Shown here: in pieces, positions 1 to 42,307 of the stretch
How the letters are laid out: every line of letters starts with the position of its first letter
Position numbering within the stretch: the stretch's first letter is position 1
DNA from: a virus
DNA length: 64,000 bases
Direction: 5' to 3' (one strand)
Virus record (IMG/VR): IMGVR_UViG_3300047666_001259
Span: 41,909-105,908 of that record
The notes under the pieces: generated by a model
What the model saw: only the letters and a program-made list of their open reading frames with translations
The model's database searches: none
What the model was told of the DNA's origin: nothing
Position numbers and translations under genes: made by a program

Positions 1-2781
1 CAATAACCTTGTTCTCATGTGATAGGTCGGTATTGCGTTTTCGTCACCTCCCGTATGGTTTAAAGATACTATAGGGACTGAGAACCCTTCTGGCCCTTCG
101 GCTTTCAAGTTATTTCCCCCATTATAAAGAGTGATATTTTTCCAAACTAAACCGTATCTTGCTTTAGTGTATTTAAAGTCATCAAAATCAAATACTGCAT
201 TTGTCGGAAGGATTAACTCTAAGTGATTAAATGATCCAAATAAACCAAAAGGTATTGGGTATGATTGATTTGGGGTTAAAGTAATCATGCCCATAATATC
301 CACATCGACAACTCCTTTATTAGTGATTTCTAACGTCATAGCTTGCATGGTAAGCATATTACCCTCACTATCATTTGACCAGAACTTTCTACCTCCAGCG
401 CCTCCATCGTTTTTCGTCTGTGGTCTTAATCTATTTCCTGACTTACCTCTTTGAGCGTAAAACTTTCCGAACTTCAATTTTACAAACTGAGAAATTGGCA
501 CTGGGTCTGGTGAAACCAAGTTATAAGGAGATGGGTCTAATATTCTATAAATATCTAAAGAACCCTCTCTAATATTAGGGGAGTTTCCCATTTCTAAAGC
601 AATTCTTCTTCCATCTTCAAAATTTTCAAAACTAATTGAATTACTATAAGGAGCAACGGAAGTGTAGTAGCTAGTAGTAGCTTCGCTCTCTGAGACTGTT
701 AAGTTTGGTCTGTCAGTATCGTTTTCTAACATAGCCTCTGAACCTCCCCACCAAGGGTAACTAAACACTCTCGGCATACCTTCGGGTCTTAACCAATACC
801 CGTACCCACACTCAACTCTCTGATATTTCTCCCCATTTAAAACAGATGAGACACCATTATCAATCGGAAACAAAACATTTGGTTTATAACCGTTGGCATA
901 CATTTCATTCTGGTTAACTCCTTGTTCGTACTTATATAGATAATTTTGGGTCACTGTCTTAGAAAAATTGTTCTTAAACCAATTTAAACTAGCCCCAACA
1001 CCTCCATCATAAGAAACCCCATAGCCTCCCGTACCACCCAAGCCAGAATCTGAATTTTCATCACTAAAGTCAGCAAACTGCCTTCCAACTAGATCACCAT
1101 CTATATACTTTGGTCGTTCAATATATTTTTTACCTTCCTCACTAAGAAGGTTGAAGTCAGGATTCATTACCACAGGCACTTTTGGAATGCTATATTTTTC
1201 TGGATACAAAGGACTCCAAGGTTTTTCGTAAGGAAAGAACCCCTCAACACCAACTGATCCTGCGTTTGGTGTTGAGTAAGATGTATTGTTTCTGTTTAGA
1301 TTAAAATGATCTCTTGTTGCATACTCAACCTCATCGAGATGAGTTTTTTCTAACCCTGTATGTCTAAATACGGCATCCTTAGAAATGTATTGTTGCGATA
1401 TCTGATAACCAGCTAGCCAAACTCCTCTCTTGCCAGTTGGGTTTCCATTAGCATCAGTTCTAAACCCGTCAGGGTCATACATATTAGCTGGAATCTTAAA
1501 AGCATGATATCCTTTAGTTCTAAATTCAGCATTCTTTTTTCTTTGAGCAAACTCATTATACCAAAATATTCTTGAATCCTCATCACGGTCATACATGTTG
1601 TGGATTTCAACAATTTCTTTATTTTTGATTGGATAACCTTCTTGAGACATATCTCTAACTGAAAAAGTTAGTGGTGAATTATAGCCTTTAGCCTGTAATT
1701 CCTCAATAGCTTTTCCTTCAAAAGAAATTGGAGTTGTAAAAAAGGTAACCCATTTTCTTAAATCTAGATTCACATCAATATTTACTTCCGTATAACCTGT
1801 TTGAAATGAACCCCAGTTTGGAATAATATCTAACGGAATCTGACGGTAGAACAAACTAGGAATAGTATCTAAGTTTGGTTCGTCATTTACTGGGAATGGG
1901 AAATTGTTCAAAGCAATCTCATCCTTCGTTAGTCCTTGTTTAAATAAATCTACTTCAAACAACATTACTTGACTTCCTGTCGGAACATTGTTTAGAATGA
2001 ACTCCCCATTATCGTTGGTGTATGTGAAGTGTTTGTAGTGAGAAGGGATAGTGTCAAACTCGCTACCACTTCTTAGATATTCTGAATTGTCTTGATTAAA
2101 AGACTGAGGGTCAAAGTACTCGTCTGGACTTGAACCTTCTTTTAGGTTTAAAGTAATTCTGTCACCTTGAGAATCTAAAGCTCCGAGTCTTGGGAACTGA
2201 GTTGAAGGCACAAAAACACCAACTGGCACATTGGCTAGTGGAATCCTTATTTTATTCCCTATTTCGTCTCTAATTGGCTGTAAAGCATTAAGAGTCCCCA
2301 TTAGAGTCCCCGTGTCTGCCTCTTGATCAGGTAAGCTGTTGGTGAGATTATTGTAAACGTCAAGCGTATTTAAAAAATCTCTTGATCTAACAAGTTTTGT
2401 TGTAACAAATAAATCATCAATCTCTGCATCGTGAAAAAAGACAAACGACTTTGAGTCTCCCCCAAATCTTATGCTCATCTCTTCTAAAAAAGTTAATTTG
2501 AATGCATTTTTATCCTCCTCGTTAAAAACGAAATTATAAGCATTCGCATAACTATGTCCTGTGTAATATTGATCGAACTCAGTTGGTCGTACTAAATTAT
2601 TTTGAGAGTTTCTCAACCAAACCTCGTTTCCATCAAATTGATTTACGTATTGTGGAACACCCTGTTGATTCAACAGGACAATCGAAGGCACACTATCTTT
2701 CTCACCCAACGGTATTTTGGTGTCGAAAAACACTACTGTTGTTCCTGTGCGTGACTTTTTAAGTAAAATTTCCTCTTGCAT
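1..2781 (-). CDS. Large virion structural protein (baseplate/tail-associated), 3' end runs off the window
   Basis: Absent from the ORF track. ATG at 2781 (MQEEILLKKSRTG...), frame open where checked, including the left edge. Contains YTNDNGEFILNNVPTG...EVDL, typical of the conserved protein next to baseplate genes in large Bacteroidota phages. Preceded by TATTTAT. Confidence 0.7.
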   Translation of the reverse strand, partial: MQEEILLKKSRTGTTVVFFDTKIPLGEKDSVPSIVLLNQQGVPQYVNQFDGNEVWLRNSQNNLVRPTEFDQYYTGHSYANAYNFVFNEEDKNAFKLTFLEEMSIRFGGDSKSFVFFHDAEIDDLFVTTKLVRSRDFLNTLDVYNNLTNSLPDQEADTGTLMGTLNALQPIRDEIGNKIRIPLANVPVGVFVPSTQFPRLGALDSQGDRITLNLKEGSSPDEYFDPQSFNQDNSEYLRSGSEFDTIPSHYKHFTYTNDNGEFILNNVPTGSQVMLFEVDLFKQGLTKDEIALNNFPFPVNDEPNLDTIPSLFYRQIPLDIIPNWGSFQTGYTEVNIDVNLDLRKWVTFFTTPISFEGKAIEELQAKGYNSPLTFSVRDMSQEGYPIKNKEIVEIHNMYDRDEDSRIFWYNEFAQRKKNAEFRTKGYHAFKIPANMYDPDGFRTDANGNPTGKRGVWLAGYQISQQYISKDAVFRHTGLEKTHLDEVEYATRDHFNLNRNNTSYSTPNAGSVGVEGFFPYEKPWSPLYPEKYSIPKVPVVMNPDFNLLSEEGKKYIERPKYIDGDLVGRQFADFSDENSDSGLGGTGGYGVSYDGGVGASLNWFKNNFSKTVTQNYLYKYEQGVNQNEMYANGYKPNVLFPIDNGVSSVLNGEKYQRVECGYGYWLRPEGMPRVFSYPWWGGSEAMLENDTDRPNLTVSESEATTSYYTSVAPYSNSISFENFEDGRRIALEMGNSPNIREGSLDIYRILDPSPYNLVSPDPVPISQFVKLKFGKFYAQRGKSGNRLRPQTKNDGGAGGRKFWSNDSEGNMLTMQAMTLEITNKGVVDVDIMGMITLTPNQSYPIPFGLFGSFNHLELILPTNAVFDFDDFKYTKARYGLVWKNITLYNGGNNLKAEGPEGFSVPIVSLNHTGGDENAIPTYHMRTRLL

Positions 2782-2906
2782 TTTGTACTTTGTCTTTGAT
2801 ATAAATAATACATGTTAAATTTCTGAAAGTAAAGAATTTTAATTATCTTTGATTTATTATGAGAAGCTAGCGTATTAAAAAAACAAAAATTTGAAGAAAT
2901 ATCATA

Positions 2907-3086
2907 ATGGAACTATCAAAAATAAATAATGTAGTTTTTGAAAACATTGATTTCAATGACTACCCAGATTACTCAGATGCTTATATATTTAGTGCTGACT
3001 ATGACGGAAAACCAATGAGTAAAATAGAATTAGATTCACTTCCTAGCGAGTGGGTTTATGAACTGTTAATCAAACAATTAGACTAA
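2907..3086 (+). CDS. Small acidic phage protein (59 aa)
   Basis: Hand-translated MELSKINNVVFENIDFNDYPDYSDAYIFSADYDGKPMS...; lies downstream of the TATCTTTG box at 2844. Confidence 0.65.
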   Translation: MELSKINNVVFENIDFNDYPDYSDAYIFSADYDGKPMSKIELDSLPSEWVYELLIKQLD

Positions 3087-3087
3087 A

Positions 3088-3516
3088 ATGGAATTAACAG
3101 AACAAGACAGGCAAGACCTTAAAGTAGAAATAGATCACATTTTTGACTCAGGAGCAAATAATATTCGTTTATCTGAAATGATGGATAGATTTATCTCTCA
3201 AAAAACAGGCTCTTTAGATGTAAATTGCTTGGGCGAAACTCAAGATATGGAGTACTTAGAGAAGAATCTCCTTGCCTCTTTAAAGAAATTACCGCATGAA
3301 ATAAAATATCCAGAAGTAGATGGATTTTATAAGCACTATAAAGGTGGGGTGTATAAATTCATGTCTATGTCTGAACATACAGAGACAGGAGAAAAATTAG
3401 TCATTTACCAATCTTTATTATTCGGAAGTATCTACGCTAGACCTTTAGAAATTTGGAATGAAAGTGTAAATGTTGGATCAGAAGTAGTGCCGAGGTTCAA
3501 AAAAATGACTACTTAA
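3088..3516 (+). CDS. DUF1653-domain protein
   Basis: C-terminal YKHYKGGVY...HTETGEKLVIYQSL...YARPLEIW...RF motif. Confidence 0.8.
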   Translation: MELTEQDRQDLKVEIDHIFDSGANNIRLSEMMDRFISQKTGSLDVNCLGETQDMEYLEKNLLASLKKLPHEIKYPEVDGFYKHYKGGVYKFMSMSEHTETGEKLVIYQSLLFGSIYARPLEIWNESVNVGSEVVPRFKKMTT

Positions 3517-3520
3517 AATT

Positions 3521-3709
3521 ATGAAATGCGAAAAACATAAGAAAGGCATGATTGTACTTCATGCTTTCTCAGAAGGTGAATGTATTATTTGTGATACTCA
3601 TATTGACACTGCCCACATTCCCTGCGATTTGGTTTGTCAAAAATGTAGTGAAGAAAAAAACTTATGCCATATTTGTGGTGAATCTACTGCTTGCCCTGAC
3701 AAGCAATAA
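3521..3709 (+). CDS. Small Cys-rich (Zn-binding) protein
   Basis: Multiple CxxC/CxxH motifs in 62 aa. Confidence 0.6.
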   Translation: MKCEKHKKGMIVLHAFSEGECIICDTHIDTAHIPCDLVCQKCSEEKNLCHICGESTACPDKQ

Positions 3710-4019
3710 CATCATCTAGCTCCTTCTTTATAGTTTCCATATATGATGCATCGAAAACATCATAAAAGAATCCTATCCTCATTGTGTGATAGGAGTTGTT
3801 TATAATATTTTTAAATTCTCTCTGATTATCTTGCTCATACCTTTGAAATGAATCCTTAGAATCTAGGACTTCAACAGGAAATCTATGAAAAAATAACTCA
3901 AAATGATCTCCACATTCTTCTTGTAATTCAACCATTTCATTATAAGTACAGTCCGTAGGCTTAACGGTAGAGCCTAAAGTCAAACAAAAAATCAACAGTA
4001 TAAAGATTGATAGCTTCAT
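3684..4019 (-). CDS. Hypothetical secreted/membrane protein
   Basis: Hydrophobic N-terminus; coupled to the stop of the wedge gene. Confidence 0.5.
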   Translation of the reverse strand: MKLSIFILLIFCLTLGSTVKPTDCTYNEMVELQEECGDHFELFFHRFPVEVLDSKDSFQRYEQDNQREFKNIINNSYHTMRIGFFYDVFDASYMETIKKELDDVIACQGKQ

Positions 4020-5890
4020 TATAAAGAAGCTACACGGATTGAAACATCTTTTGCTACATCCATAATCTCGAACATCACCAAAGGTAAACCTCTTACTGAA
4101 TTGTCTAGTAAGTCAATCTCAGTAATATAACCCCCTGTTTCAGGAATCAATTGTGTGTTTGATCCAGCTTGTGGGTGAAGAGTTTCTGAATAACCACCAT
4201 CTTGCATGTTGAAGAACTTAATCTCGACAACGTTAATCACGCCCGGTACCTCTCGGAGGGTGTCTACAATTTGAGATACGTAAATATGCTCATTCATTTC
4301 CCATTTTTCTACATCAAAGAAATCGTTAATCTCTTTCACTGTAGCTTGCTTAATCTCTTTTGAATTAAAGTTATCTCCATCAATCAACAGATCAACATTT
4401 ATTCTAAGATTTATAATCTTTCCATCGTTGATCTCAACAAAGTCGTTTATCATTCTGTAACGAGAAATGTAATTAATCAAATTGTCTTTAATTCTATCGG
4501 TTGAAGGAGATACTAGTTTTCCATTTCCAGCTCTGGAAATGATATGCATGATTACCTTATTCTCATCAACTTCAGCTGCAATTCTAAATGGTGATCCGAA
4601 TTTTCCATCAATCTGATAGGCACGAGATGTGTAATCCCTGAGAGTAACACATCTCTCTTGAGCTGCGTGGTTAGCTGCTGTGTTGCTGACGATTTCTTCA
4701 ACAGAAGGCAATCCTCTACCCCCAAGAGCTGGAAATGGGTTACTTACTCTTGTTGAAGCTACGACTGCATCGTTAGTTCCTTGGTCGATTCCCGGGTTGG
4801 TTGAGTTGATATTACTAACCTCCTGTAAAACATTTGCCCCAACATTAGAAGTCAAACCCCCACCAGCTCTATACTTTACATAAACAGTACAATTTGCAGG
4901 TAATTTTTTTCCTAAAGCCTTATTATCTAGTACATCTCCAATATTGATCGCACTCTGAGGCTTGAAAGGATTTTCAACCCCAATCAATGAGTCCAAATAA
5001 TTCTCATAAGCATCATACGACTCTACGCCACCACCAAAAGTAATCCTACAAGAACCGTCTGCTAAAAATTCTTTCTCAAACCTTCTAGGAACTTCTTTCC
5101 AATATCCTTGGAAATTTCCATTTGCATCTTGAACATCTGATTGCTTAAAAAATAAATCATCAGTCGGAAGAAAGTCTACTTCATACCATTTAATCGAATC
5201 GTTGTTGAAATCTGAAAATGTTGGATTAGAATCCAACCCTAACTGCTCGTATATGATTATAGAATCTACATGAAGAACATTCTTATCAGGGATATTGAAT
5301 TTATAGAAAGGCTTATTGCCATCAGTAATTTCTCTTTTTATGATCTTAGTAACCCCTGCCTTAACCTTTTCTCTCTTTACGATTTGATATCTAAGAAGTT
5401 GTTGGTTCTGGTTTAAAACCTCATTAATAACTCTGTTTGGTATTCCGTCTTCCGAGAAGTCAGAAGAAAAATCTATATCTTCAAGAGTTTCAAAAACTTG
5501 ACCACCACCAGCAACCCTTAACCCTGAACGGTATATTGGTAAATATGAAGTGTCTGGCCCGTCAGAGGTAGCTGGTACATCAATGATTATATCAACAACT
5601 GTTACCGCAGGGCGTACACCCGGCACCCTATAACCTTTGGTTTTTGCCAACCTATAAGCATCAACTCTTTGACGAACTCCGTCTAAAAACAGTGAGTTGA
5701 ATTTTTTGTCCGCAAGGTGAGAAAGAAGATCACCAACATAGGCATTCAAGTCGAGTATTGCCATGCCCGGTGATGCTACATTGAAATCTTGCCACTCATC
5801 TGGATAAAAGGCTTTTAGATAATTCTCCAAATCTGTTCTAATGGAAGAAAAATTTCTACTTAAATAATTAACTTGTACTTGATCTGACAT
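4019..5890 (-). CDS. Baseplate wedge subunit (T4 gp6 / baseplate J-like)
   Basis: N-terminal YLSRNFSSIRTDL...LDLNAYVGDLLS; FGGG; YRAGGG..SNV; AAQERCVTLRDY; C-terminal VPGVINV. Confidence 0.9.
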   Translation of the reverse strand: MSDQVQVNYLSRNFSSIRTDLENYLKAFYPDEWQDFNVASPGMAILDLNAYVGDLLSHLADKKFNSLFLDGVRQRVDAYRLAKTKGYRVPGVRPAVTVVDIIIDVPATSDGPDTSYLPIYRSGLRVAGGGQVFETLEDIDFSSDFSEDGIPNRVINEVLNQNQQLLRYQIVKREKVKAGVTKIIKREITDGNKPFYKFNIPDKNVLHVDSIIIYEQLGLDSNPTFSDFNNDSIKWYEVDFLPTDDLFFKQSDVQDANGNFQGYWKEVPRRFEKEFLADGSCRITFGGGVESYDAYENYLDSLIGVENPFKPQSAINIGDVLDNKALGKKLPANCTVYVKYRAGGGLTSNVGANVLQEVSNINSTNPGIDQGTNDAVVASTRVSNPFPALGGRGLPSVEEIVSNTAANHAAQERCVTLRDYTSRAYQIDGKFGSPFRIAAEVDENKVIMHIISRAGNGKLVSPSTDRIKDNLINYISRYRMINDFVEINDGKIINLRINVDLLIDGDNFNSKEIKQATVKEINDFFDVEKWEMNEHIYVSQIVDTLREVPGVINVVEIKFFNMQDGGYSETLHPQAGSNTQLIPETGGYITEIDLLDNSVRGLPLVMFEIMDVAKDVSIRVASL

Positions 5891-5903
5891 CTTCTTTTGT
5901 TTT

Positions 5904-6293
5904 TTAAACTACTGGGTTTTGAAATTGGAATGACAAATTTATCTCGTCTTCCAGTGAATTGAATACAACTATGCTGTAAACAAATCTCACTTTCAAAACG
6001 TAAGTGTTTTCATCAAATTCAAAGATTAATTCTTCTAATTTAATTTCTGGAATTACATCCTCTATAACTTGCCTAACTTCGGCTTCTAGCATATCCTCAG
6101 TAATATCATCCCAAGGATCAAAAATATAGTTATAGAAAGGTGAATAAACGTTAGAGCGCATGGGACGCTGACCCGGTTTCGTAGTCATCAACGAAATCAA
6201 GTTTGTCTTAATCGCATCTCTGGTGGTTTTTGTGGTTTGAAACCTACCTCCTTGAGAAGAGTCATTAAACGGAAAAGCTATGCCTATATTCAT
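5904..6293 (-). CDS. Baseplate protein gp25 / GPW family
   Basis: IGIAFPF...AIKTNLISLMTTKPGQRPMRS motif; start moved to ATG 6293. Confidence 0.85.
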   Translation of the reverse strand: MNIGIAFPFNDSSQGGRFQTTKTTRDAIKTNLISLMTTKPGQRPMRSNVYSPFYNYIFDPWDDITEDMLEAEVRQVIEDVIPEIKLEELIFEFDENTYVLKVRFVYSIVVFNSLEDEINLSFQFQNPVV

Positions 6294-6365
6294 TTTTATA
6301 CCTTTGTATTCATAATGTAAATAATGCAGCAAAAAAAATAAACTAATTAAATCTTTTTGCCACAG

Positions 6366-6372
6366 TATTTAT
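6366..6372 (+). promoter_or_regulatory. Putative late promoter TATTTAT (also 40506, 51913 on +; 2801, 11730, 16563, 18863, 29245, 31382, 57347 on -)
   Basis: On the coding strand 4-30 nt upstream of structural and putative late genes. Confidence 0.65.
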
Positions 6373-6386
6373 AATAAAAGTTCACA

Positions 6387-7805
6387 ATGGGAATCTACAG
6401 AATATATCCTTCCTCATCAAACACTATTGCTAACGGTAGGTATGCTACATACAACTCTAGCCAGAATGCCGTAGCCAATTTGTGGTATGGAGGTGGAATG
6501 GGTGCAAACACCTCTTTCCGTCAAAATACTTACAGTAGATTTATGATGCAATTTGACCTATCTACTTTAATGCAAAATTTTGCAGACAAGACAATTGTTT
6601 CTGGAAGTGTATCTTCTTATAAATTAAAAATGACCAGTACTGTTGTAGGTGGTCGTGAATTAGAGAGGGAGGGAAGGATTGCAAAGTTAGATGCAGTTAT
6701 TGCTACGTCTTATGACCTTCTTGCTTTTCCGATCAATAAAGATTGGGATGAAGGTAGGGGTTATGATATTCTAGAATCTGAATTTGTATTTACCCAATAT
6801 GGTGTTCCTAGAATTACTGGTTACTCAAACTGGAATTCGGCAACGACCCTAACCGCTTGGGATGAAGATGGAATTTTTGAAGACCCATCAGCTTCTACAA
6901 TTAACAACGCTACTCAACATTTTGCTTTAGGAAACGAGGATATTAATATGGACGTTACAGACATAGTTAGCTCTTGGGTTGACGCATCGGCTGCAAACAA
7001 CGGTGTAGCGCTATCGTTTTTACGTCCCTACGAGCTTATAAGCTCCGATACACAGAGTTTCACGTCTTTCTTTACCCAACACACCAATACAGCTTTAAAG
7101 CCTCATATAGAGGTTAATTTCGATCAATTGATTGAAGATGATCGTTTGTATGTTTCTAATAATAGAACATCCAAGCTTTACCTCTACACTTTTAGTGGTG
7201 ATTCACCAGCAAACTATGTATCAATTGGGTCGGTTGATATCACCGACAACGCTGGAACTGTAATTTATTCTGGTTTACCTGTCAATCAAACTGAAAGAGG
7301 AGTTTATTATGTGGAAGTTCTAATGAGTGGAGCTACTAGAGGTCAGAAATATAAAGACGTATGGAATGACGTTGTATTTAATGCAGGAGTAGACTCAACA
7401 ACATTTACTCAAACATTTACAATTAAAGATAATTACTACCAAAGAACTCCTTCGGTAAATGATTATTCAGTTGATATTTATGGAATTGAAAATGGTCAGA
7501 AAATTGTAACGGGAGACAAAGTGAAAATCTTCTGCGATCTTAGGTCAAACTACCAATCTTTTAAAGCTCCTTCTAATCCATTTAGAATGTTTTATAGAAT
7601 TGTGATGAATTCACAAGTAGAGGTTGTGCCTTGGAGTCAAGTGAATAGAATCGTTACGGATAATTGTCTTTCTCACTATATTGATCTAGATACTATTTGG
7701 TTGCTTCACAACCAAAATTATAGAGTTGAATTTAAAATGCAAGAGTACGGAACCAACAGAAGGCTTCCTGAAACTCTTGAGTTTAAAGTAATTAACCCTT
7801 TTTAA
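6387..7805 (+). CDS. Virion structural protein (DNRLRE-like N-terminal domain)
   Basis: SRFMMQFD, WDEGRG, MDVTDIVSSW..NNG, HTNT..PHIEV motifs; late-type TATTTAT upstream. Confidence 0.65.
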   Translation: MGIYRIYPSSSNTIANGRYATYNSSQNAVANLWYGGGMGANTSFRQNTYSRFMMQFDLSTLMQNFADKTIVSGSVSSYKLKMTSTVVGGRELEREGRIAKLDAVIATSYDLLAFPINKDWDEGRGYDILESEFVFTQYGVPRITGYSNWNSATTLTAWDEDGIFEDPSASTINNATQHFALGNEDINMDVTDIVSSWVDASAANNGVALSFLRPYELISSDTQSFTSFFTQHTNTALKPHIEVNFDQLIEDDRLYVSNNRTSKLYLYTFSGDSPANYVSIGSVDITDNAGTVIYSGLPVNQTERGVYYVEVLMSGATRGQKYKDVWNDVVFNAGVDSTTFTQTFTIKDNYYQRTPSVNDYSVDIYGIENGQKIVTGDKVKIFCDLRSNYQSFKAPSNPFRMFYRIVMNSQVEVVPWSQVNRIVTDNCLSHYIDLDTIWLLHNQNYRVEFKMQEYGTNRRLPETLEFKVINPF

Positions 7806-14423: not shown

Positions 14424-15603
14424 GTGTTCTTTCAGTTTTATATTCTTTAATAATTTCAAAAATTCTTTCCTTCTCACCACTTACGGTATAATTCTTAAGA
14501 AGGTCTTCATAGTCAGATTGGATTTGTGGAACATCCATTTCTCCAGATAACCATTTTTCCAATGCTACACCTAAAAGTTCTACCATTTGGAATATTTCTC
14601 CGTTGTGCGCCCAGAATCCATTATTATCCTTCACATACTCTTTTGAGCCGAATGGGAACCATCCAACTACGTGAGTACCAGAAGCCATTGATTCTAGTGG
14701 TAATGTACCAAATCCAGCAATCTCATCTGTATACATACAGAAAGCGAATTCTGAAAGTCTTTCAGCAAACTCTTCACGCTTCAAACCTCCTAGCTCCACA
14801 AATCTCACCCATCTTAGGTGTGGGTTTACAGCACGGAACATTTTAATGATGTTCATTACTTTGAGATTAGTTTCTTGACCTCTTGGGGTCATGAAAGCCA
14901 CCATAGGCTTTTTCTTTGAGATTTCCTCTGGAAGTTGAAAGACTTCTCTATCGATCCCTTGACGAATCTTCTTGATGTTCATGCCCGGCATCGTGGTGTT
15001 GATAAACTCGGTAATAGCATCCGAAACAGAAACAACGTCTCTAATTCCGAAGTTTTGCCAGCTTTGACCATCCTGCATTCCAGTAAGGACATATGCCCAA
15101 CTTTGCGCTAACACAATTCTCTTACAAGAAACTTGTGCTGTCATTTGCATAATATTAGGGAATCCCTCAGGGATAAACATAAAGTCTTCCGACTGAACTT
15201 GAAGTGGCGTAGTTTCAAACGTAACTACCTTACCTTCCGAGTTGATCGTCTTTGCCTCTTTGTCTCCTAATGCTTTGAATTCTATTTTACTAATATCAAA
15301 ATCAACCCAATCAGCATTAAATGTATTAAAAATGTCTACTCTCTTTTTAGCTTTCACAGACTCTTGTTGTGATAAGTTAGGGTCGTGTTGTGGCTCATAC
15401 CACACCTTGATATCATATCTCTCAGATAAGTGAGATGCCAACCTTAAGAGAACGCCAACGCCACCACTAGGGGTAGGCATTGCAGGACAATAAAAATGTA
15501 CAGTGAATTTATCTCCTCTGATTCTTTCTACCACCTGATCGATTAGTTCGTTACGGCTAACCTCTTCTTTTTGGACTTCTTGCTCTTGAATTTCTTCTGC
15601 CAT
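14395..15603 (-). CDS. Glycosyltransferase (GT-B / family 4-like)
   Basis: PSGGVGV N-terminal motif; GFGTLPLESMASGTHVVG signature. Confidence 0.8.
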   Translation of the reverse strand: MAEEIQEQEVQKEEVSRNELIDQVVERIRGDKFTVHFYCPAMPTPSGGVGVLLRLASHLSERYDIKVWYEPQHDPNLSQQESVKAKKRVDIFNTFNADWVDFDISKIEFKALGDKEAKTINSEGKVVTFETTPLQVQSEDFMFIPEGFPNIMQMTAQVSCKRIVLAQSWAYVLTGMQDGQSWQNFGIRDVVSVSDAITEFINTTMPGMNIKKIRQGIDREVFQLPEEISKKKPMVAFMTPRGQETNLKVMNIIKMFRAVNPHLRWVRFVELGGLKREEFAERLSEFAFCMYTDEIAGFGTLPLESMASGTHVVGWFPFGSKEYVKDNNGFWAHNGEIFQMVELLGVALEKWLSGEMDVPQIQSDYEDLLKNYTVSGEKERIFEIIKEYKTERTHELEAAKTN

Positions 15604-29835: not shown

Positions 29836-31377
29836 AAGTAACTCTGTAAACCTTTGAGCTTCAGCCTGAGCTAACCATTTACCCATTTCTGGGGTTCCAT
29901 TAGTAAGCCCTGCTGCTTCCGCATCCTTACCACCTAATTTAGGTAGATTGATGTAGTCCATAAAAGCTTCAATCATCTTTGGATCACCCATTCCTAACAG
30001 CCCAGCTTTTGCTATCTGCTCAAAAGAAGCAGACTGTTTGTCTCTCTTTGATTTAGCATTGTTTGGGTTTAGGGATTTTAGGTCAACCAAATAAGAGACC
30101 GCCTTAGCAAAATCCCCAGAGTACTTTGCAGCCATTAAAGCCTTGAAAAGCTTATTTGGGTTGTTGTTTCTAGCAATCGAAGCCAAAACAACAACCTGAT
30201 CGTGATCATTTACCAATTTCTCTTTAACATTAACGTTAATGTTAGGGAGAACCTGTGGCATCATTCCAAAATCCTCAAGCATATCCAAGTAGTTTTGGAC
30301 AGACTTAGCTTGTTGTATTCCCTTCAGAAACTCAGCCATAATAGCTTCAGCTGGCTGACCTCCGAGAGAATTGTTCTGACGGATAGAATCAGCAGTCGCT
30401 TGATCCAAAGGGTTACCAACACGAGCAGCAAACCTAATTGCCCTCATAACTCTAATTCTGTGTTCATCAAACCTTTGAGTAGGATCACCTACAGTTCTTA
30501 CAATTCCGTTCTTGATATCCTCGATACCACCAACGAAGTCAATGATTTCTTTAGAATCAATATCATAGTATAAGGCGTTGATCGTCAAATCACGTCTGTA
30601 AGCATCTTGGTCAATGGTTGAGTATGCAGTTTCAGGTTTAGTGTGATCATCTCCGATGTCAGTTCTAAACGTAGCAATCTCATACAATCCGATATCAGTA
30701 TTAGGAATATGATCAGGAGTGGCTACGTGGACTACGGGGAATGTAGCACCAGCTTCTTTGATTCCGTACCCACCAACTGCATTAAACATAGCCAAAATCT
30801 CTTGCGGCTTGGCATCAGTTGCTAGATCGTAATCTTTAGGTTGCACCTTATTTAAGGCATCTCTAACTGCCCCTCCAACAACATACAGTTCAAATCCAGA
30901 CTTCGTAAAAATCTGGTTAATCACCAACAGGTCATTCGGTAAAGATAGCTCAAAAGGCACTCTTATTTCGTTTTCTATTTTCTTCAAAGCTTGTTCCATT
31001 AAATCTATTTCTTCAATTGTTGCTTCCACCTCTCTTTCTTGTGGAAGAACCTTAATCCCTTTCTTCTCTAGGAAAGCAACTAAAGCTACCGTCAAAGGTA
31101 CGGAAATTACTCCACCCGCCAAAAGACCTAAAGCTTTTCCTACGTCACCAGTTTGCCTTTTAAGAAAAACCTTCTCTTGTTTAGTGACTTTTTGTCTTTT
31201 GAGGATTCTCATGAGAATCTCCATTGCTTGCTTAGTCTCTTGAGTTTCTCGTTTAATAACATCAGGGGCTTGTTTCTTAACATCCTTAGTTGTATCCCAA
31301 GCCTTATTGACTCCCTTTCTTATTTTCTGAAAAACATTCTCCTTAACGAGCTGTTTTAACTGTTCTTCTTCTTTCAT
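29830..31377 (-). CDS. cca: tRNA nucleotidyltransferase (CCA-adding / poly(A) polymerase family) with an N-terminal LETM1-like extension
   Basis: YVVGGAVRD...KDYDLAT, EIATFR, DAYRRDLTINAL, RVMRAIRFAAR. Confidence 0.88.
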   Translation of the reverse strand: MKEEEQLKQLVKENVFQKIRKGVNKAWDTTKDVKKQAPDVIKRETQETKQAMEILMRILKRQKVTKQEKVFLKRQTGDVGKALGLLAGGVISVPLTVALVAFLEKKGIKVLPQEREVEATIEEIDLMEQALKKIENEIRVPFELSLPNDLLVINQIFTKSGFELYVVGGAVRDALNKVQPKDYDLATDAKPQEILAMFNAVGGYGIKEAGATFPVVHVATPDHIPNTDIGLYEIATFRTDIGDDHTKPETAYSTIDQDAYRRDLTINALYYDIDSKEIIDFVGGIEDIKNGIVRTVGDPTQRFDEHRIRVMRAIRFAARVGNPLDQATADSIRQNNSLGGQPAEAIMAEFLKGIQQAKSVQNYLDMLEDFGMMPQVLPNINVNVKEKLVNDHDQVVVLASIARNNNPNKLFKALMAAKYSGDFAKAVSYLVDLKSLNPNNAKSKRDKQSASFEQIAKAGLLGMGDPKMIEAFMDYINLPKLGGKDAEAAGLTNGTPEMGKWLAQAEAQRFTELLS

Positions 31378-37948: not shown

Positions 37949-38260
37949 ATGAAAAAAGAAAATTTAATAGAACAATATAAAGAAATATCGAAAACATATT
38001 CATCTTTTGAAGATTGTTATAATCTTGTAACAGAAACTAATAATGTAGAAATATGTAAATTTTGTTTAGATTCTGATGGTATTTGGAAAAGACTTGAATT
38101 ACAATGGATGTTGGAATTTTTTCAAACCAACGAAGAATATGAAAAATGTGAAGTTTTGAAAAAATTAATAGAAGAACATTTTATTGCTGATGAATATAAA
38201 CAAAATGAGTTGAATAGTAAATTAGATGAATATGTTTCTTATATAAATAACGGTAGTTAG
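37949..38260 (+). CDS. Hypothetical protein, UVR-like motif
   Basis: LEFFQTNEEYEKCEVLK; very AT-rich; left flank of the cassette array. Confidence 0.55.
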   Translation: MKKENLIEQYKEISKTYSSFEDCYNLVTETNNVEICKFCLDSDGIWKRLELQWMLEFFQTNEEYEKCEVLKKLIEEHFIADEYKQNELNSKLDEYVSYINNGS

Positions 38261-38601
38261 TAATCCTATATAAGAATAGTAATAAAGGACGTGGAACTGC
38301 CGCTAATGAAATAATGAGTGGTTATGCGTTGTATAATAACAACTGTGCTGAACCCACTTGGTTACTTACTGAGTTTAATTATTTAAAAGAAACAACAAAT
38401 ATTAAATTCAAAAAATACTTTGGATATAAATTAACTGAAGAAGAAAGCGTTGTGTTTTGCTATGAAAATGATTGATATAATGAGTGAGACACTAAGGAGT
38501 GCAAAGGGAGTGCCTAATGGCTCTTTTCGGTGTGCCGATGACGAATGTATGTTATCCCCCTCTCATTCATTATATCTTTTGTTATTGTGCGTTTTAATAC
38601 A

Positions 38602-38810
38602 CTCTAACGGTTTGTGTATGGGTATTTTTTGCCCGATTTAATAATAACTAAAATTTAATAAAATGACTGAGGAAATTAAGCAATTACTGATTGACTGTGC
38701 AAACTTTATCCAACCGTATGATGATGGAGGAAACGAAGCTGAAAGGTTAATGATAAGACTTGATGAAGCACTAAAGCAAGGGTAATAATTACCTATACAC
38801 GTTGTTGTAT
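38602..38810 (+). repeat. attC-like site A (209 bp, loop carries a 40-codon ORF)
   Basis: CTCTAAC 38602-08; arms 38614-34 / 38780-800; GTTGTAT 38804-10. Confidence 0.8.
38663..38785 (+). CDS. 40-aa ORF inside an attC-like loop (possibly truncated)
   Basis: MTEEIKQLLIDCANFIQPYDDGGNEAERLMIRLDEALKQG*; A-rich leader. Confidence 0.5.
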   Translation: MTEEIKQLLIDCANFIQPYDDGGNEAERLMIRLDEALKQG

Positions 38811-38897
38811 GTCTTTTTTAATTGCATACAATATGTTGTATGTGCCGTTATGAGGCACGAGCAATGAATTTTAAACCTTGTTAGGCACTTTACGATA

Positions 38898-39089
38898 ATG
38901 GATAAGATGGAATCATTCACGTACAAAGGCTTCAAGGTAGACCCAACTTGTTATAACTATGGTTTTGAATGTATAGTTCAAGACGAAGCACCAAAGCTAT
39001 TTGGTATGTCTATAAATGGCATCAAGTTAGAGATTGACGAATGGATTAAAAAAGAAAAAAGGGAAGGGGAAAACTTAGAGTACCTATAA
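38898..39089 (+). CDS. Cassette ORF, hypothetical
   Basis: Follows GTTAGGCAC at 38880; ends in a degenerate complement TAGAGTACCTATA. Confidence 0.55.
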   Translation: MDKMESFTYKGFKVDPTCYNYGFECIVQDEAPKLFGMSINGIKLEIDEWIKKEKREGENLEYL

Positions 39090-39106
39090 AATTAAAGACA
39101 AATAAA

Positions 39107-39412
39107 ATGAACGAATCAAAAGAAATGATGGGGGAGCAATGTTTAACCGAAAAACAAACATTAAAAACCTCTTTAGAAAAATTAAACCAAAGAAACTATG
39201 AACTGAATGATATTGCGTCATTAAGTTCTCTATTAGTAGAAAAATTCTTTAACCCTAATAACGAGCCTAGAGATAATCAAGGTTCTGATAGAGAAAAAGA
39301 AAGACAGCCTGATAATATAGTTGAAGTTTTTGACGAGGTATCTAAAAAGCTTGGTAATAACATAAACACTATTGGGAGCAATTTGCAAAGAATATTGGCA
39401 ATAATGGAATAA
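39107..39412 (+). CDS. Cassette-region ORF, hypothetical coiled coil
   Basis: ORF track. Confidence 0.55.
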   Translation: MNESKEMMGEQCLTEKQTLKTSLEKLNQRNYELNDIASLSSLLVEKFFNPNNEPRDNQGSDREKERQPDNIVEVFDEVSKKLGNNINTIGSNLQRILAIME

Positions 39413-39481
39413 CCAACTTGTGAGCGTGGGCTTTTTCTTATTAGCAGAATGTTTGATTTGAAACTGAATTTAGCCCATGAC

Positions 39482-39575
39482 TTACAACGTTTAGGCTAAG
39501 GTTAGTAGCCTTTAATACTAACCATTAAATTATAACAAGACCTATTGAGGCTATTAATTTTAGCCATTGTTAGGC
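39482..39575 (+). repeat. attC-like site B (94 bp)
   Basis: TTACAAC; 17-bp stem 39494-510 / 39549-565 (3 G-T pairs); GTTAGGC. Confidence 0.85.
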
Positions 39576-39585
39576 ATAGTTTATT

Positions 39586-39789
39586 ATGGAAGCAAGAGAA
39601 TTTTACGACAAAAGAATTAACGAAGAACCGACTATTGGAAGCGTACAGTTAATGGAAGAATATGCAAAACATATTATTGAAATTAACTTTTGTGATGGCT
39701 CTCCTATTGAATTTAACAAACTATCGGTTGAGCAACTAAAAACAATTCACAAAAATATAAATAAGTGTGTCGATTGGGTTAACTCCTAA
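39586..39789 (+). CDS. Cassette ORF, hypothetical
   Basis: Between GTTAGGCATAGTT and AATTGTGCCTAAC; LMEEYAK motif. Confidence 0.6.
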   Translation: MEAREFYDKRINEEPTIGSVQLMEEYAKHIIEINFCDGSPIEFNKLSVEQLKTIHKNINKCVDWVNS

Positions 39790-39793
39790 TTGT

Positions 39794-39924
39794 GCCTAAC
39801 GGAATTGTATAAGGTTTCGTTACGTAGATTAAATAATAAATTAACAAATAAAAACTGAATTGTGATTAAGCAAGAAAATAATAAACAAACAGAAATTAGT
39901 AATGAACTTTATACGGTGTTATGC
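39794..39924 (+). repeat. attC-like site C (131 bp)
   Basis: GCCTAAC; arms 39807-23 / 39899-914 with one bulged T; GTTATGC. Confidence 0.85.
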
Positions 39925-40200
39925 CCCGTTAATTTGTTTAGGTACTTCCTTCGCAAGCAATACAAAGACGTTGAAATTAGTAACGAAGAATGCGATGAAT
40001 TAAACACAGACTTTCACAAACACTTAACAAGCCTAAAGTTAAGCGAAAAGCAAAAGGAAAACATAATGCCTAAAAGTGAAATAGATGTAATAATGAACTC
40101 TGAACACCCATTAAGAATGGATGGATTTAGCCCTGCTTATGTTTTTCATTTTGGTGAATATATAAAAAGTAGAGCAGTCGCATTGGCTAATGGGGCATAG
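39862..40200 (+). CDS. Cassette ORF starting inside the site C loop
   Basis: GTG start in the loop; reads through GTTATGC (ELYTVLCPV); TAG stop lies in the next site's left box. Confidence 0.6.
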   Translation: MIKQENNKQTEISNELYTVLCPVNLFRYFLRKQYKDVEISNEECDELNTDFHKHLTSLKLSEKQKENIMPKSEIDVIMNSEHPLRMDGFSPAYVFHFGEYIKSRAVALANGA

Positions 40201-40205
40201 CTGTT

Positions 40206-40394
40206 GTTATCGGCAGTTTAATTGAAAAATATCAAAAAGTTCGCAATAAAAATCAGGAGCAATTTATGACTCAATTTGGAAATGAATATTCTATATCAAA
40301 CGCACTTTTATTGGAAGAAAGAGATTGTTGCGACAGATTTATAGAAGATTTGAAAAAACTGCCGATAACGGCTGATGATAAACAATCGTTTTAA
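40206..40394 (+). pseudogene. Headless cassette ORF (62 codons) after a collapsed site
   Basis: VIGSLIEKYQKVRN...LKKLPITADDKQSF* open from the GTT; upstream hairpin reduced to GCATAGC-tgtt-GTTATCG. Confidence 0.5.
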
Positions 40395-40416
40395 TGTTGT
40401 TTATCATTTGTTATGT
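40363..40416 (+). repeat. attC-like site E (54 bp, minimal)
   Basis: CGATAAC-ggctg-ATGATAAACAA-tcgttttaatg-TTGTTTATCAT-tt-GTTATGT. Confidence 0.85.
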
Positions 40417-40525
40417 GTAGGTGTGGTTAATTAAGGTAGAATGTTTAATCGGAGAACTGAACAAAAATTTTAAAAGAAAAAGAAGGGTTGATTTTAAAAT
40501 TTGAATATTTATATATAAACATATT

Positions 40526-41044
40526 ATGAGTGAAGATATGAGAAAAATGATTGATAAAGCTAAGAACTTTAATCAGTTTTTAAATGAAAACGAAAATTTA
40601 ATGAACCAAATATTAGATAAAATTAGTTCTAATGGTATAACATCATTAAATACTGGTGAATTAAAATATTTGAAACAATATTCTTCTGGACAAATAAATC
40701 CAGATTTAGAAAAAGCACTTCAAGTTGAAAGTGGTTTTGTTTTTGTTTCAAAAAATATACCACTGTTAAGATTTGAATATAATTTCACCGAAGAATCAGA
40801 TGAAGAATATCAAAAAATGCTACACAAAGGAACCGTTTATATTGACGGATTAGAATTTGATGGAGATATTTATTGTGATGAAAATGGAAAATATGAAGCA
40901 TTCGATTTTCACACATATCAATCCAATGATGATGGCACAACTGACCAAATAGAAGATTTAGCTTACTATGATGATGAGTTAGATGGTAAGATAGAAAAAT
41001 TCTTTAAAAATGAAGTTTCTCCTTACTTAACCTATTCATTTTAA
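40526..41044 (+). CDS. Cassette-borne late-type protein
   Basis: Own TATTTAT at 40506; N-terminus ...NFNQFLNENE; ILDKISSNGITSLN.GE..YL. Confidence 0.65.
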   Translation: MSEDMRKMIDKAKNFNQFLNENENLMNQILDKISSNGITSLNTGELKYLKQYSSGQINPDLEKALQVESGFVFVSKNIPLLRFEYNFTEESDEEYQKMLHKGTVYIDGLEFDGDIYCDENGKYEAFDFHTYQSNDDGTTDQIEDLAYYDDELDGKIEKFFKNEVSPYLTYSF

Positions 41045-41093
41045 AAAGTTGGCGGGATTTTTCTTTTAAAATTTTCAACCGAAATGTTGATTA

Positions 41094-41133
41094 GAACGAT
41101 AAACGGAACGATAAACGGAACGATAAACGGAAC
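41094..41133 (+). repeat. 12-bp tandem repeat (GAACGATAAACG x3.3)
   Basis: Directly visible. Confidence 0.9.
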
Positions 41134-41139
41134 ACTTAC

Positions 41140-41236
41140 ACATAACGTTAAGTATATGGTTTTGTAAGCCATAGCAGAAATTTACAAATTAAAAACGAAT
41201 ATTAATTAGGCTTATAAACTATATACATTGTTGTGT
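41140..41236 (+). repeat. attC-like site F (97 bp)
   Basis: ACATAAC; arms 41152-70 / 41209-26 with one bulged T; GTTGTGT. Confidence 0.85.
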
Positions 41237-41270
41237 GTAATACGGGATTTAAGCCACAAACTTTATAAAA

Positions 41271-41453
41271 ATGCAAAGAAAGATAAATTGCAAACACAAC
41301 AACATGGGTGCTTGGTGTACCAACAAGGATATAAAACGCTCATTGTTTGGTATAGGTGCAAGATGTTGTACTGAATTTAATGACAAAAAATGTGATTTAA
41401 AAGAAATTAGAACAAGGAAAGGCAAGCCGCCACCAAGACCAACGAAAGCGTAG
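41271..41453 (+). CDS. Cassette ORF, small Cys-rich protein
   Basis: Between GTTGTGTGTAATAC and GTATTACACACAAT. Confidence 0.6.
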   Translation: MQRKINCKHNNMGAWCTNKDIKRSLFGIGARCCTEFNDKKCDLKEIRTRKGKPPPRPTKA

Positions 41454-41459
41454 TATTAC

Positions 41460-41684
41460 ACACAATGTTATGGATATGGATTGATTTTTAACGGATAAAT
41501 AAACACAGAATTATGAATATAGACGAAGAAAATAAAGCAAAAGAATTTTACATTAAGAGTGCTATAAATGGCATTCATACACCACGAACTAATATGGTTG
41601 AGATAAACTATTTAGATATGCTAAAGCTAATGCACTCTTACAGCCAAGAGGTAGTTAAAAATTTATCTATATCTGGTGTTAAGA
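41460..41684 (+). repeat. attC-like site G (225 bp)
   Basis: ACACAAT; arms 41473-92 / 41654-73; GTTAAGA. Confidence 0.8.
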
Positions 41685-41851
41685 ACTGGGTGGCGGTTAA
41701 AGACTCTATGCCCGAAAATTGCGACCAAGTTTTTGTAAAGTATGAAAATGGCAAATATGGAATAAATGAATGGTGGAAAAGTGATGATTGCTGGAAATAC
41801 CAATTTGATAATATGATAGTAAAAGAATGGTGTAAGCCACCTTGTTCTTAA
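41513..41851 (+). CDS. Cassette ORF with a C-terminal DUF551-like domain, starting inside the site G loop
   Basis: WVAVKDSMPE...V...W...P.PP; stop is the TAA of TCTTAAC. Confidence 0.65.
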   Translation: MNIDEENKAKEFYIKSAINGIHTPRTNMVEINYLDMLKLMHSYSQEVVKNLSISGVKNWVAVKDSMPENCDQVFVKYENGKYGINEWWKSDDCWKYQFDNMIVKEWCKPPCS

Positions 41852-41915
41852 CGTCTCGTATATGGTGTCGGAATTTTATTTTTCTTAAAATTATGCATTA
41901 TATACTTTGTTACCA
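41846..41915 (+). repeat. attC-like site H (70 bp)
   Basis: TCTTAAC-gtctc-GTATATGGTG...CATTATATAC-ttt-GTTACCA. Confidence 0.8.
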
Positions 41916-41945
41916 ATAGTACGGATTTTAATAACTAAATTTAAT

Positions 41946-42227
41946 ATGAAAACAATAACTTCAATTATAGCACTAGCTAAGGCATTTTTTATATTGCTTG
42001 TTAGGCGTAGTGCTTCTTTACCGCAAGTCTTAATGACTAAAAATGATTTTGAATTAGTTTTAAACCACTATCTACTAAATTATTGGGATATAAAACATGA
42101 AAATATTGATGGATTTGAACATTTAACAATTCAAAATCATTTACCATTTTATAAAAAAAGGTTTGAAGAAATGAAAAAAGTAATTGATGAACGCAAGATT
42201 ATTCGTGTGATGGTGCATTACACCTAA
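41946..42227 (+). CDS. Cassette ORF reading through the half site at 42000
   Basis: ATG 41946; ILLVRRSAS spans GTTAGGC; stop is the TAA of ACCTAAC. Confidence 0.55.
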   Translation: MKTITSIIALAKAFFILLVRRSASLPQVLMTKNDFELVLNHYLLNYWDIKHENIDGFEHLTIQNHLPFYKKRFEEMKKVIDERKIIRVMVHYT

Positions 42228-42273
42228 CACTGGAATAGATTGCGTTTCAATGCAACTCTATGGAATGTTAAAG
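42222..42273 (+). repeat. attC-like site J (52 bp)
   Basis: ACCTAAC; ATAGATTGC-gtttcaat-GCAACTCTAT; GTTAAAG. Confidence 0.75.
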
Positions 42274-42307
42274 CACGTTTTAATGTGCTAAATTTTAAAT
42301 TCATAAA

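Follow-up and report, generated by a model that had tools for sequence, protein, structure and literature searches.

The window analyzed here, the whole 64,000-nucleotide stretch of viral DNA taken from a 106-kb IMG/VR contig of a large marine phage that is about 31% complete, contains near 38.5-42.3 kb a series of small genes and hairpin sites, all lying on the + strand. The leftmost hairpin (38474..38583) has arms at 38474-38489 and 38561-38576 (16 nt, 94%) followed by TTTT-GTT; it has no AAC upstream and is probably a distal, partial site. Site A (38606..38806) shows the order AAC-N5-arm..arm-GTT, holds a 40-aa open reading frame (ORF, 38663-38785) in its loop and is matched by the covariance model R1, described below, at 38602-38810 (35.3 bits), outside the training set of the model. 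A preliminary description of the region had placed sites to the left of 39486; these do exist, but the body that follows them (38880..39488; ORFs 38898-39089 and 39107-39412) is without flank complementarity, only four of 14 nucleotides being paired.

From 39569 to 42228 seven bodies succeed one another, each with GTT and a flank at its start and a complementary flank and AAC at its end, and with hairpin sites between them. Site B (39486..39571; R1 55.2 bits) precedes body 1 (39569..39800; ORF 39586-39789), and site C (39798..39920; 36.8 bits), the loop of which contains the start of ORF 39862-40200, precedes body 2 (39918..40201). Several sites are decayed. The AAC at the end of body 2 has become AGC, and the adjoining site D (40199..40208) is a 4-nt remnant from which the hairpin has been deleted. 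Body 3 (40206..40369; ORF 40266-40394), site E (40367..40412; 41.2 bits), body 4 (40410..41146; ORF 40526-41044, encoding a DUF6576 protein), site F (41144..41232; 52.8 bits) and body 5 (41230..41466; ORF 41271-41453) follow. Body 5 ends in AAT, with which site G (41464..41680), also decayed, starts; this site pairs 20-nt arms (41473-41492 and 41654-41673) around a 161-nt loop that includes the start of ORF 41513-41851, the C-terminal half of which lies in body 6 (41678..41852). Site H (41850..41911; 51.4 bits) leads into body 7 (41909..42228), which consists of a leader and ORF 41946-42227 and is composite. The hairpin of site H indeed closes at a GTT, at 41909-41911, but the flank that pairs with the end of body 7 starts instead from an internal GTT at 42000, 91 nt further on (the leader plus 18 codons). 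The series finishes in a terminal element (42226..42290) composed of AAC, a small hairpin and GAAT-GTT, then a terminator-like hairpin. Array 1 of the same contig ends in an identical type of element (L087:4617-4690), and the element is a candidate attI-like end. In relatives an AAC half-site stands before a recombinase gene; here the next gene is a 94-aa ORF without relation to it.

The flanks of these bodies are complementary in a chained manner. All seven GTT/AAC flank pairs reported in the preliminary description were found again at its coordinates, with 11, 12, 14, 13, 13, 12 and 12 matches per 14 nt for bodies 1-7 in order, as against a mean of about 7/14 for non-cognate pairs. When only the 11 nt outside the triplets are considered, cognate flanks match at 8-11 positions, against an average of 4.57 (sd 1.35) off the diagonal; none of the other orders among the 5040 permutations of the seven bodies does as well as the observed pairing. 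By a cruder measure, the number of flank pairs with at least 12/14 matches, the region contains six, where dinucleotide shuffles give 1.7 +/- 1.5 and the remaining genome 1.05 in 4.2 kb; the shuffled-sequence control named beforehand as a possible refutation was passed. AT-rich sequence yields many weak inverted repeats, and both a generic inverted-repeat finder and a simple 11/13 scan were noisy in it; an origin of the array by chance is nonetheless contradicted by the permutation, shuffle and covariance-model controls and is rejected. The chained flank complementarity of the seven bodies is confirmed, and the hairpins and the division into units described before are likewise real.

A further detail had to be corrected, namely that bases outside AAC and GTT do not pair within a site: TAAC and GTTA pair over 4-5 nt. 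Hairpins are far more stable when each site is joined to the beginning of the body that belongs to it than in the sequence of the array itself (in two examples, -23.0 against -12.7 and -24.7 against -15.7 kcal/mol). Complementarity of the cassette start to its own inverse core, which in integrons is the footprint of a circular cassette, is present in this array and also holds in contig L094 and in Freya_10. The proposal that circular cassettes have integrated here is supported, with the refinement that the sites are not canonical attC sites.

The sites belong to a family with the consensus yAAC-N5-GTATATGG..loop..CTATATAC-N3-GTTr; their stems covary, and a G.T pair in them is conserved. Among 38 aligned sites, compensatory changes occur in 8 of 11 stem pairs, and one stem pair is G.U in 27. 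The + strand folds more stably than the other strand in six of seven sites; fold energies and the conserved G.T pair both favour the coding strand. In its yAAC and GTTr ends, 5-nt and 3-nt spacers and covarying inner stem, the family fits the imperfect RYYYAAC/GTTRRRY hairpin of integron sites, which has inner (L) boxes and an unpaired spacer, the full RYYYAAC consensus being satisfied by only part of the sites. Searching the whole 106-kb contig with R1, a check that had been called for, yielded nine matches, four of them untrained, all on the + strand and all within two arrays; NadE-encoding phage contigs used as control loci (about 1.3 Mb) gave a single marginal match. With six R1 matches and three degenerate sites within 3.8 kb, the present array has the tandem sites on the gene strand that characterize the family. 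No match was obtained when the 64-kb window was searched against Rfam at gathering thresholds.

Members of this site family occur widely among the phage contigs of IMG/VR, and cultured phages of Polaribacter and Cellulophaga carry them as well. A 15-mer of site A is present in more than 117 IMG/VR contigs, most of which have the same anatomy; by estimate, a hundred or so such matches would be expected by chance in so large a collection, but a chance origin was rejected because the matches have context and anatomy in common. In two subfamilies of the sites, identity profiles fall to background level just outside AAC and GTTA, and many GTT flanks are succeeded by a leader motif that is conserved. 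For sites A, B, F and H, homology to other contigs begins within a few nucleotides of AAC. Copies of site B in L127 and L152 (88-92% identical) begin at AAC, and site F is homologous to L104, L090, L180 and L202 from AAC to or just beyond GTT (41232; 41246 for L202). At sites B and H homology continues across GTT into the leader or gene start, as it does at site C when compared with L153, where the ORF 39862-40200 has a homologue with an ATG start. Some homology breakpoints lie inside genes or hairpin loops, away from AAC and GTT.

No recombinase of any class searched for (tyrosine, serine, Y1 transposase) was found in the recovered 106-kb contig. This absence fits the earlier suggestion of a recombinase encoded elsewhere. 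Clustering of the ORFs neighbouring the 15-mer matches produced methyltransferases, terminase and DnaB, and no recombinase, which was detected only by searching whole records. It is present in 5 of 50 site-bearing records, in four of these 1-3 kb downstream of the array, and a tyrosine recombinase is missing from seven of nine near-complete site-bearing phage records. The array-linked enzyme is an Xer-like tyrosine recombinase of ~267 aa and not an IntI. Its best sequence and structure matches are XerA (4a8e, E 1e-34) and XerC/D, its scores all lying under the Xer equivalog cut-offs. Its alignment with IntI4 consists of two blocks, the enzyme having 37 aa in place of the 85 present in IntI4, and it reaches 152.6 bits against TIGR02249, for which the cut-off is 265; the additional domain specific to integron integrases is wanting. 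In a reciprocal test on 78 recombinase loci, 170 of 170 R1 matches were upstream of and co-oriented with the gene, and an independent regular-expression scan of 413 kb counted 89 upstream + strand sites against none downstream. About 45 nt ahead of the recombinase ATG a half-site, yAAC/TAT.ATATA, is conserved. That the Xer-like enzyme acts on these sites is inferred, there being no biochemical evidence to link the two. Hairpin-guided single-strand transposition of the IS200/IS605 (HUH) type, or MITE-like elements, could also leave hairpin sites with short, conserved, cleavage-like triplets; this explanation is very improbable, since the contig is without a Y1 transposase, the recurrent neighbour is a tyrosine recombinase and the units stand in ordered arrays instead of being dispersed.

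Evidence for the movement of units comes from cultured phages with the same site family. Isolates of Polaribacter phage Freya are 99.9-100% identical over the flanking sequence compared, whereas Freya_1, 5, 6, 9 and 10 differ by 0.3-4.9 kb; the differences are whole units cut exactly at AAC, and every junction falls directly after yAAC beside the integrase gene. A 1169-bp unit bounded by AAC on both sides occurs, 99.6% identical, at a different array position in Danklef. The predicted unit-wise gain and loss with breakpoints at AAC was thus observed in these phages. Natural crossover takes place at the AAC, in the 5' part of the hairpin; a hairpin therefore moves with the gene downstream of it, and each site sits upstream of its gene. 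The canonical G/TT crossover with the site downstream of the gene was set aside in view of these AAC-side junctions; since loop contents have been swapped, G/TT might still serve as a second point of exchange. Colinear relatives of the present array were not found in IMG/VR with the upstream 103-aa ORF, NadE or the downstream 154-aa ORF, nor by a NadE search of JGI metagenomes; the best NadE match is 70%, on a contig that stops at that gene. In the absence of both a recombinase and colinear relatives, activity and mobility of this window's own cassettes are inferred and have not been shown.

These observations also bear on the view that the sites are intergenic regulatory hairpins, either terminators or promoter-stem-loop modules like the PeSLs of T4-type phages, shuffled by homologous recombination between repeats. 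PeSLs are stem-loop modules between small early genes in hyperplastic regions, near-identical repeats that homologous recombination shuffles; they are not known to have private flank complementarity or a linked recombinase. The sites do lie between small early-type genes, many GTT flanks are followed by the conserved leader motif, and some breakpoints are away from AAC and GTT. This view is unlikely, however, as it leaves unexplained the private inverted repeats around the bodies, the junctions exactly at AAC by the recombinase gene, and the way in which the sites strictly keep one orientation to that gene and lie next to it.

We therefore think it quite likely that the 38.5-42.3 kb region is an orphan cassette array, one without a recombinase, and part of an integron-like system of gene exchange carried by phages. 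Every unit would consist of a folded site (yAAC, a 5-nt spacer, an inner arm of the GTATATGG type, a loop, the complementary arm, a 3-nt spacer and GTTr), then a short leader and then a small gene, the next AAC forming its end. In the excised circle the end flank of a unit is expected to pair with its start flank, lengthening the hairpin, and it is because of this pairing that each body here would carry a private inverted repeat. The coding (top) strand is inferred to fold, and the enzyme is inferred to cut the 5' arm at AA/C, in the way that IntI cuts a folded attC strand. In relatives, the recombinase encoded directly downstream of the array behind the conserved half-site would swap units at the AAC beside it, so that site, acceptor site and recombinase would be arranged as in an integron, the cassette genes being opposite in direction. 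In the present phage either the enzyme acts in trans, coming from the ~70% of the genome that was not recovered, from a co-infecting phage or from the host, or the array is a fossil.

A wider reading, towards which we lean with more reserve, is that marine Bacteroidota phages, among them jumbo phages, possess an integron analogue of their own, in which a short Xer-like recombinase, an AAC half-site acceptor immediately upstream of its gene and arrays of self-contained cassettes (folded top-strand site, leader and gene) would allow exchange between unrelated phage families during infection, with orphan arrays serviced in trans. It would represent a second, independently organized cassette-capture platform and a main source of turnover among the accessory and anti-defence genes of phages. 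When ten cassette proteins were compared with Pfam and PHROGs, only DUF6576 and one weak PHROG match were obtained, and no full-length relatives were found for the proteins of ORFs 40526-41044 and 39107-39412; the recurrent cargo of arrays includes DNA methyltransferases, which points to counter-defence. Integrons have been regarded as a bacterial invention dependent on IntI. Here their logic of folded single-strand sites, circular cassettes and an acceptor beside a tyrosine recombinase would operate in lytic-type and jumbo phages with an enzyme that is different and simpler and with opposite gene polarity, which may be how phage genomes come to have hyperplastic regions of small ORFan genes. 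On this account, lysogeny need not be read from the "integrase" genes of Freya, Danklef and Ingeline. As the evidence consists of natural variation in cultured Polaribacter phages, the system can be tested at the bench.

It remains to consider whether the array is a fragment of an ordinary bacterial integron (CALIN) that the phage captured from its host and on which a host IntI acts. It meets the definition of a CALIN (at least two close attC-type sites and no integrase) only if its sites count as attC-type; the core triplets and some whole boxes do resemble attC R boxes of the GCCTAAC and GTTAGGC type. CALINs have been described in phage genomes, including Polaribacter phage P12002L, where HattCI alone called a family member as an attC, P12002L_attC1 (Qi, Rajabal, Ghaly, Tetu, and Gillings, 2023; PMC9892861). 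This site falls inside an R1 match (L308 30005-30059, minus strand), one of nine around methyltransferase genes in P12002L. It was the sole failure among the six phage sites assayed with IntI1, no junction being verified (Qi et al., 2023; PMC9892861). That study found only two sites per phage and handled them as ordinary attC; neither the family and the recombinase linked to it nor the junctions at AAC and the opposite gene direction were described there (PMC9892861). A host CALIN is further opposed by the family's own conserved inner box and spacer geometry, found in phage contigs, by genes lying on the folding strand, and by a linked enzyme that is without the IntI insertion and under integron-integrase cut-offs; we consider it unlikely.

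The phage-borne, integron-like system that we favour can be set beside three known systems. With PeSLs the phage arrays share small early genes separated by stem-loop modules. With Xer/dif, IMEXs and archaeal XerA they share a recombinase of the XerA and XerC/D kind, but its presumed substrates are arrayed hairpin sites, not the 28-bp duplex dif. With integrons and CALINs they have in common cassettes delimited by folded, imperfect hairpins that carry AAC/GTT core triplets, cassette starts complementary to cassette ends, an acceptor site beside a tyrosine recombinase where turnover is concentrated, and the existence of integrase-less arrays. In integrons, however, ORFs are opposite to the folded strand and attC is downstream of the ORF; in the phage arrays genes are on the folding strand, co-oriented with the recombinase, and the site stands before the gene. 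The phage arrays differ further in their sequence-conserved inner box, in an Xer-like enzyme about 50 aa shorter where IntI has its specific insertion, in the unreactivity of the one tested family member with IntI1 and in being carried by phages.

Sequence inspection of array 2, the cassette array of the window (about 38.5-42.3 kb), showed small ORFs of one orientation with hairpins between them, each hairpin starting with AAC and finishing with GTT. Seven consecutive bodies, the ORF-holding stretches that run from a GTT to the next AAC (39569-39800, 39918-40201, 40206-40369, 40410-41146, 41230-41466, 41678-41852 and 42000-42228), have complementary flanks: between the 14 nt from GTT and the 14 nt up to the next AAC, 11-14 positions are complementary, as against a mean of about 7 of 14 for non-cognate combinations. 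With the triplets removed, 8-11 of 11 positions are complementary on the diagonal and 4.57 ± 1.35 off it, and the true flank order is the unique maximum among 5040 permutations, thus bearing out the claim of the preliminary description that each GTT flank pairs with the flank of the next site. The shuffled control proposed there was less clear-cut, since a cruder count of flank pairs gave 6 in the region versus 1.7 ± 1.5 in shuffles, only a moderate excess; the strength of the flank signal lies in the ordered chain and not in this count. In computed folds, each site joined to the start of its own body forms a near-continuous hairpin that is far stabler than the sequence found in the array. The main correction to the earlier parse concerns site H, whose hairpin ends at GTT 41909 and not at 42000.

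The sites share one plan: yAAC and, after a 5-6-nt spacer, an inner arm of the GTATATGG type; then a loop of 9 to about 180 nt and the complementary arm, with a spacer of 3 nt before the closing GTTr. When 38 sites of the window and of other contigs were aligned, 8 of 11 stem pairs proved to carry compensatory double changes. Because one stem pair is G.U in 27 of the 38 sequences, which would be a C.A mismatch on the opposite strand, and because the + strand fold is the stabler one in six of seven reconstructed sites, the folding strand is likely the coding strand. A custom covariance model of the family (R1), a search that the preliminary description had put forward, matches nine sites in the entire contig, all on the + strand and all within array 2 or array 1, the second array of the contig (G000 32.4-34.7 kb, + strand). 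Four of these nine were absent from the training set, and control loci of NadE-encoding phage contigs gave one marginal match in about 1.3 Mb. Array 2 comprises six model-grade sites, three degenerate sites and a terminal element common to array 1; it shows some decay and has no adjacent recombinase. We conclude that array 2 truly belongs to this phage cassette system, its present activity being inferred at most. Colinear relatives of array 2 were sought and not found, and profile searches assigned no known function to its cargo proteins beyond a DUF6576 match.

The site family is widespread. A 15-mer of site A (AAC plus inner arm) is present in more than 117 IMG/VR contigs, most of which have the same stop-rich upstream flank ending in yAAC and the same closing arm and GTT. 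Two subfamilies show cross-contig identity of 80-100% from AAC to GTTA, falling to background immediately outside. The homology of window sites A, B, F and H to other contigs starts within a few bases of AAC and, for B and H, runs past GTT into the leader; site C aligns in the latter manner with locus L153.

The preliminary description had suggested looking for a tyrosine recombinase or HUH nuclease, and none emerged: no tyrosine recombinase, serine recombinase or Y1 transposase was found in the recovered 105,908-bp contig. PF00589 matches occur in 8 of 50 site-bearing records. Five of the matches fall in small proteins, with open frames of 191-285 aa, and the recombinase gene lies 1-3 kb downstream of the sites, co-oriented with them, in four records. 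In locus L094, the recombinase ATG stands about 50 nt behind the ..AAC that closes an array of 11 or more R1 sites (1397-7213). The best matches of this Xer-like protein of about 267 aa are archaeal XerA, integron integrase and XerC/D, all under curated cut-offs. Its alignment with XerA (4a8e) runs over the full length, and it has 37 residues where IntI4 (2a3v) has 85; therefore the insertion carried by the integron integrase is missing from the phage enzyme. In a reciprocal test on 78 further IMG/VR loci encoding relatives at 63-82% identity, all 170 R1 matches (E <= 0.001) lie upstream of the recombinase and on its strand, and an independent regex-plus-pairing scan found 89 sites upstream versus 0 in 413 kb downstream. 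The last cassette yAAC stands right before the recombinase gene and is followed by a conserved TAT.ATATA motif, the two together being, as judged from sequence, a putative half-site in attI position. Note also that many recombinase contigs (L313, L315, L318, L340-L342, L380, L382, L386 and others) start or end at most a few hundred bases upstream of the gene; array heterogeneity in the population may break assemblies there.

Homologues of the recombinase (about 37% identity), annotated as 'integrase', are encoded by the cultured Polaribacter phages Freya_1 to Freya_10 (MT732463-72) and Danklef and by Cellulophaga phage Ingeline. Between Freya isolates, identity is 99.9-100% across the several kb that were compared on each side of the array; they differ by 0.3-4.9 kb directly upstream of the 'integrase' gene. 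Each junction consists of ..yAAC followed by one common sequence that starts ACCCCTATAAC and extends 57 nt to the ATG; about 440 bp between two such AACs in Freya_6 are missing from Freya_10. A 1169-bp unit bounded by AAC on both sides is 99.6% identical in Freya_10 and Danklef_1, with different neighbours and order. Unit-wise gain and loss at AAC, as anticipated in the preliminary description, is thus observed in Freya and Danklef isolates, not in array 2 itself. Ingeline has an AAC junction continuing as ACCC..ATAAC ahead of its 'integrase', as in Freya, and complementary body flanks are found also in the L094 and Freya arrays. The paper describing Freya makes no mention of cassettes or hairpins and reads the 'integrase' as a possible sign of lysogeny (PMC8776804). 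In Danklef_1 the 'integrase' (L219 5973-6492) is annotated with 44 aa only beside an opposite-strand ORF, and the match is confined to residues 107-267, which may mean a disrupted gene; the array upstream of it is nonetheless intact. In both Freya and Danklef, the gene next after the recombinase encodes an HNH endonuclease (L214 4969-5592; L215 872-1495).

The source contig, a single IMG/VR virus record of which the window covers bases 41909-105908, has a CheckV completeness of about 31%. Its larger genes include those for NadE, a CCA/poly(A)-polymerase-type enzyme and an R2K ATP-grasp protein, and a 517-aa protein has its nearest phage-collection relatives in Lak megaphages of Prevotella, Maribacter phages and cyanophages, from which we infer a fragment of a large phage. 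Bacteroidota, named earlier as its host group, remain likely, since the site family is common to cultured Polaribacter, Cellulophaga and Maribacter phages, and are not proven.

Some units are irregular. The C-terminal 57 aa of ORF 41513-41851, which begin shortly ahead of GTT 41678, have counterparts of 54-87% identity in L303, L304 and L305, where the loop-encoded N-terminal part is unrelated; L303 has kept the hairpin arms and replaced the loop content. The 172-aa DUF6576 ORF 40526-41044 has only its 5' leader and first 23 codons in common with L006 (40508-40598 versus L006 5983-6073, 88% DNA identity), similarity ending abruptly thereafter, and body 7 holds a GTT flank in its interior, at 42000. 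Such irregularities suggest extra exchange points or secondary deletions. Very short 'bodies' of 27-29 nt (38581-38608, 38804-38832 and 41909-41935) are either empty cassettes or a leader-motif AAC read as a site start. Many bodies begin with GTTr, about 6 nt and a conserved leader, rGTrCGGATT..TAAC, A-rich from there to the ATG (41909-41946, 41230-41270; L087 3650-3690, 3900-3935; many other loci), which may be a promoter, translation signal or accessory binding site. Both arrays end in the same element (42226-42290; L087 4617-4690), namely AACAC.., a small hairpin, GAAT-GTT-AAAG and a second hairpin, whose stem differs between copies by compensatory TG/CA swaps; its start in array 1 resembles the junction before the Freya and Ingeline integrase. 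Counterparts of the 103-aa ORF between nadE and array 2 (37949-38260) occur, with identities of 65-86%, in five further viral contigs, among them records of 380 kb and 242 kb, and none of the window neighbours of the ORF accompanies them; the ORF behaves like a mobile module, and no AAC/GTT sites were seen at its borders.

The most recurrent identifiable array cargo is DNA methyltransferases (N6_N4_Mtase, MT-A70, Mom-like; L094 1499-1995, 5861-6457; L308 29248-32126, 37305-38816; further loci in neighbour-ORF clusters), suggesting an anti-restriction role. IntegronFinder and HattCI, run over 10,705 phage genomes, had yielded 17 CALINs, one of them in Polaribacter phage P12002L (Qi et al., 2023; PMC9892861). 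Of nine R1 matches in P12002L (locus L308), eight are found around its methyltransferase and Mom-like genes on the minus strand, which is the gene strand, and the ninth is on the plus strand (14499-14628); P12002L_attC1, located by its primer sequence (supplement of PMC9892861), falls at 30015-30046 within an R1 match. It is the only one of six sites without a verified IntI1 junction (PMC9892861), a failure that fits a different cognate enzyme. Our literature search, of incomplete coverage, found no account of the site family, of the Xer-like enzyme that goes with it or of junctions at AAC; prior publication is not excluded.

These observations establish the site family and its covariation, the strict linkage and polarity of the sites relative to an Xer-like recombinase, and unit differences cut at AAC; the mechanism is inferred. 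The cassette unit would be C-hairpin-GTT-leader-gene-..AA; upon its circularisation both private flanks would lengthen the hairpin, and the folded top strand would be cut between AA and C on the 5' arm. In integrons, the bottom strand of attC folds and is cut by IntI between AA and C, and this strand also encodes intI, downstream of attI. Seen from the folded strand, sites, acceptor and recombinase therefore follow one another in the phage system as they do in the integron; the cassette genes alone are inverted, so that each site lies upstream of its own gene, a layout that accounts for the ORFs with starts in hairpin loops (sites A, C and G).
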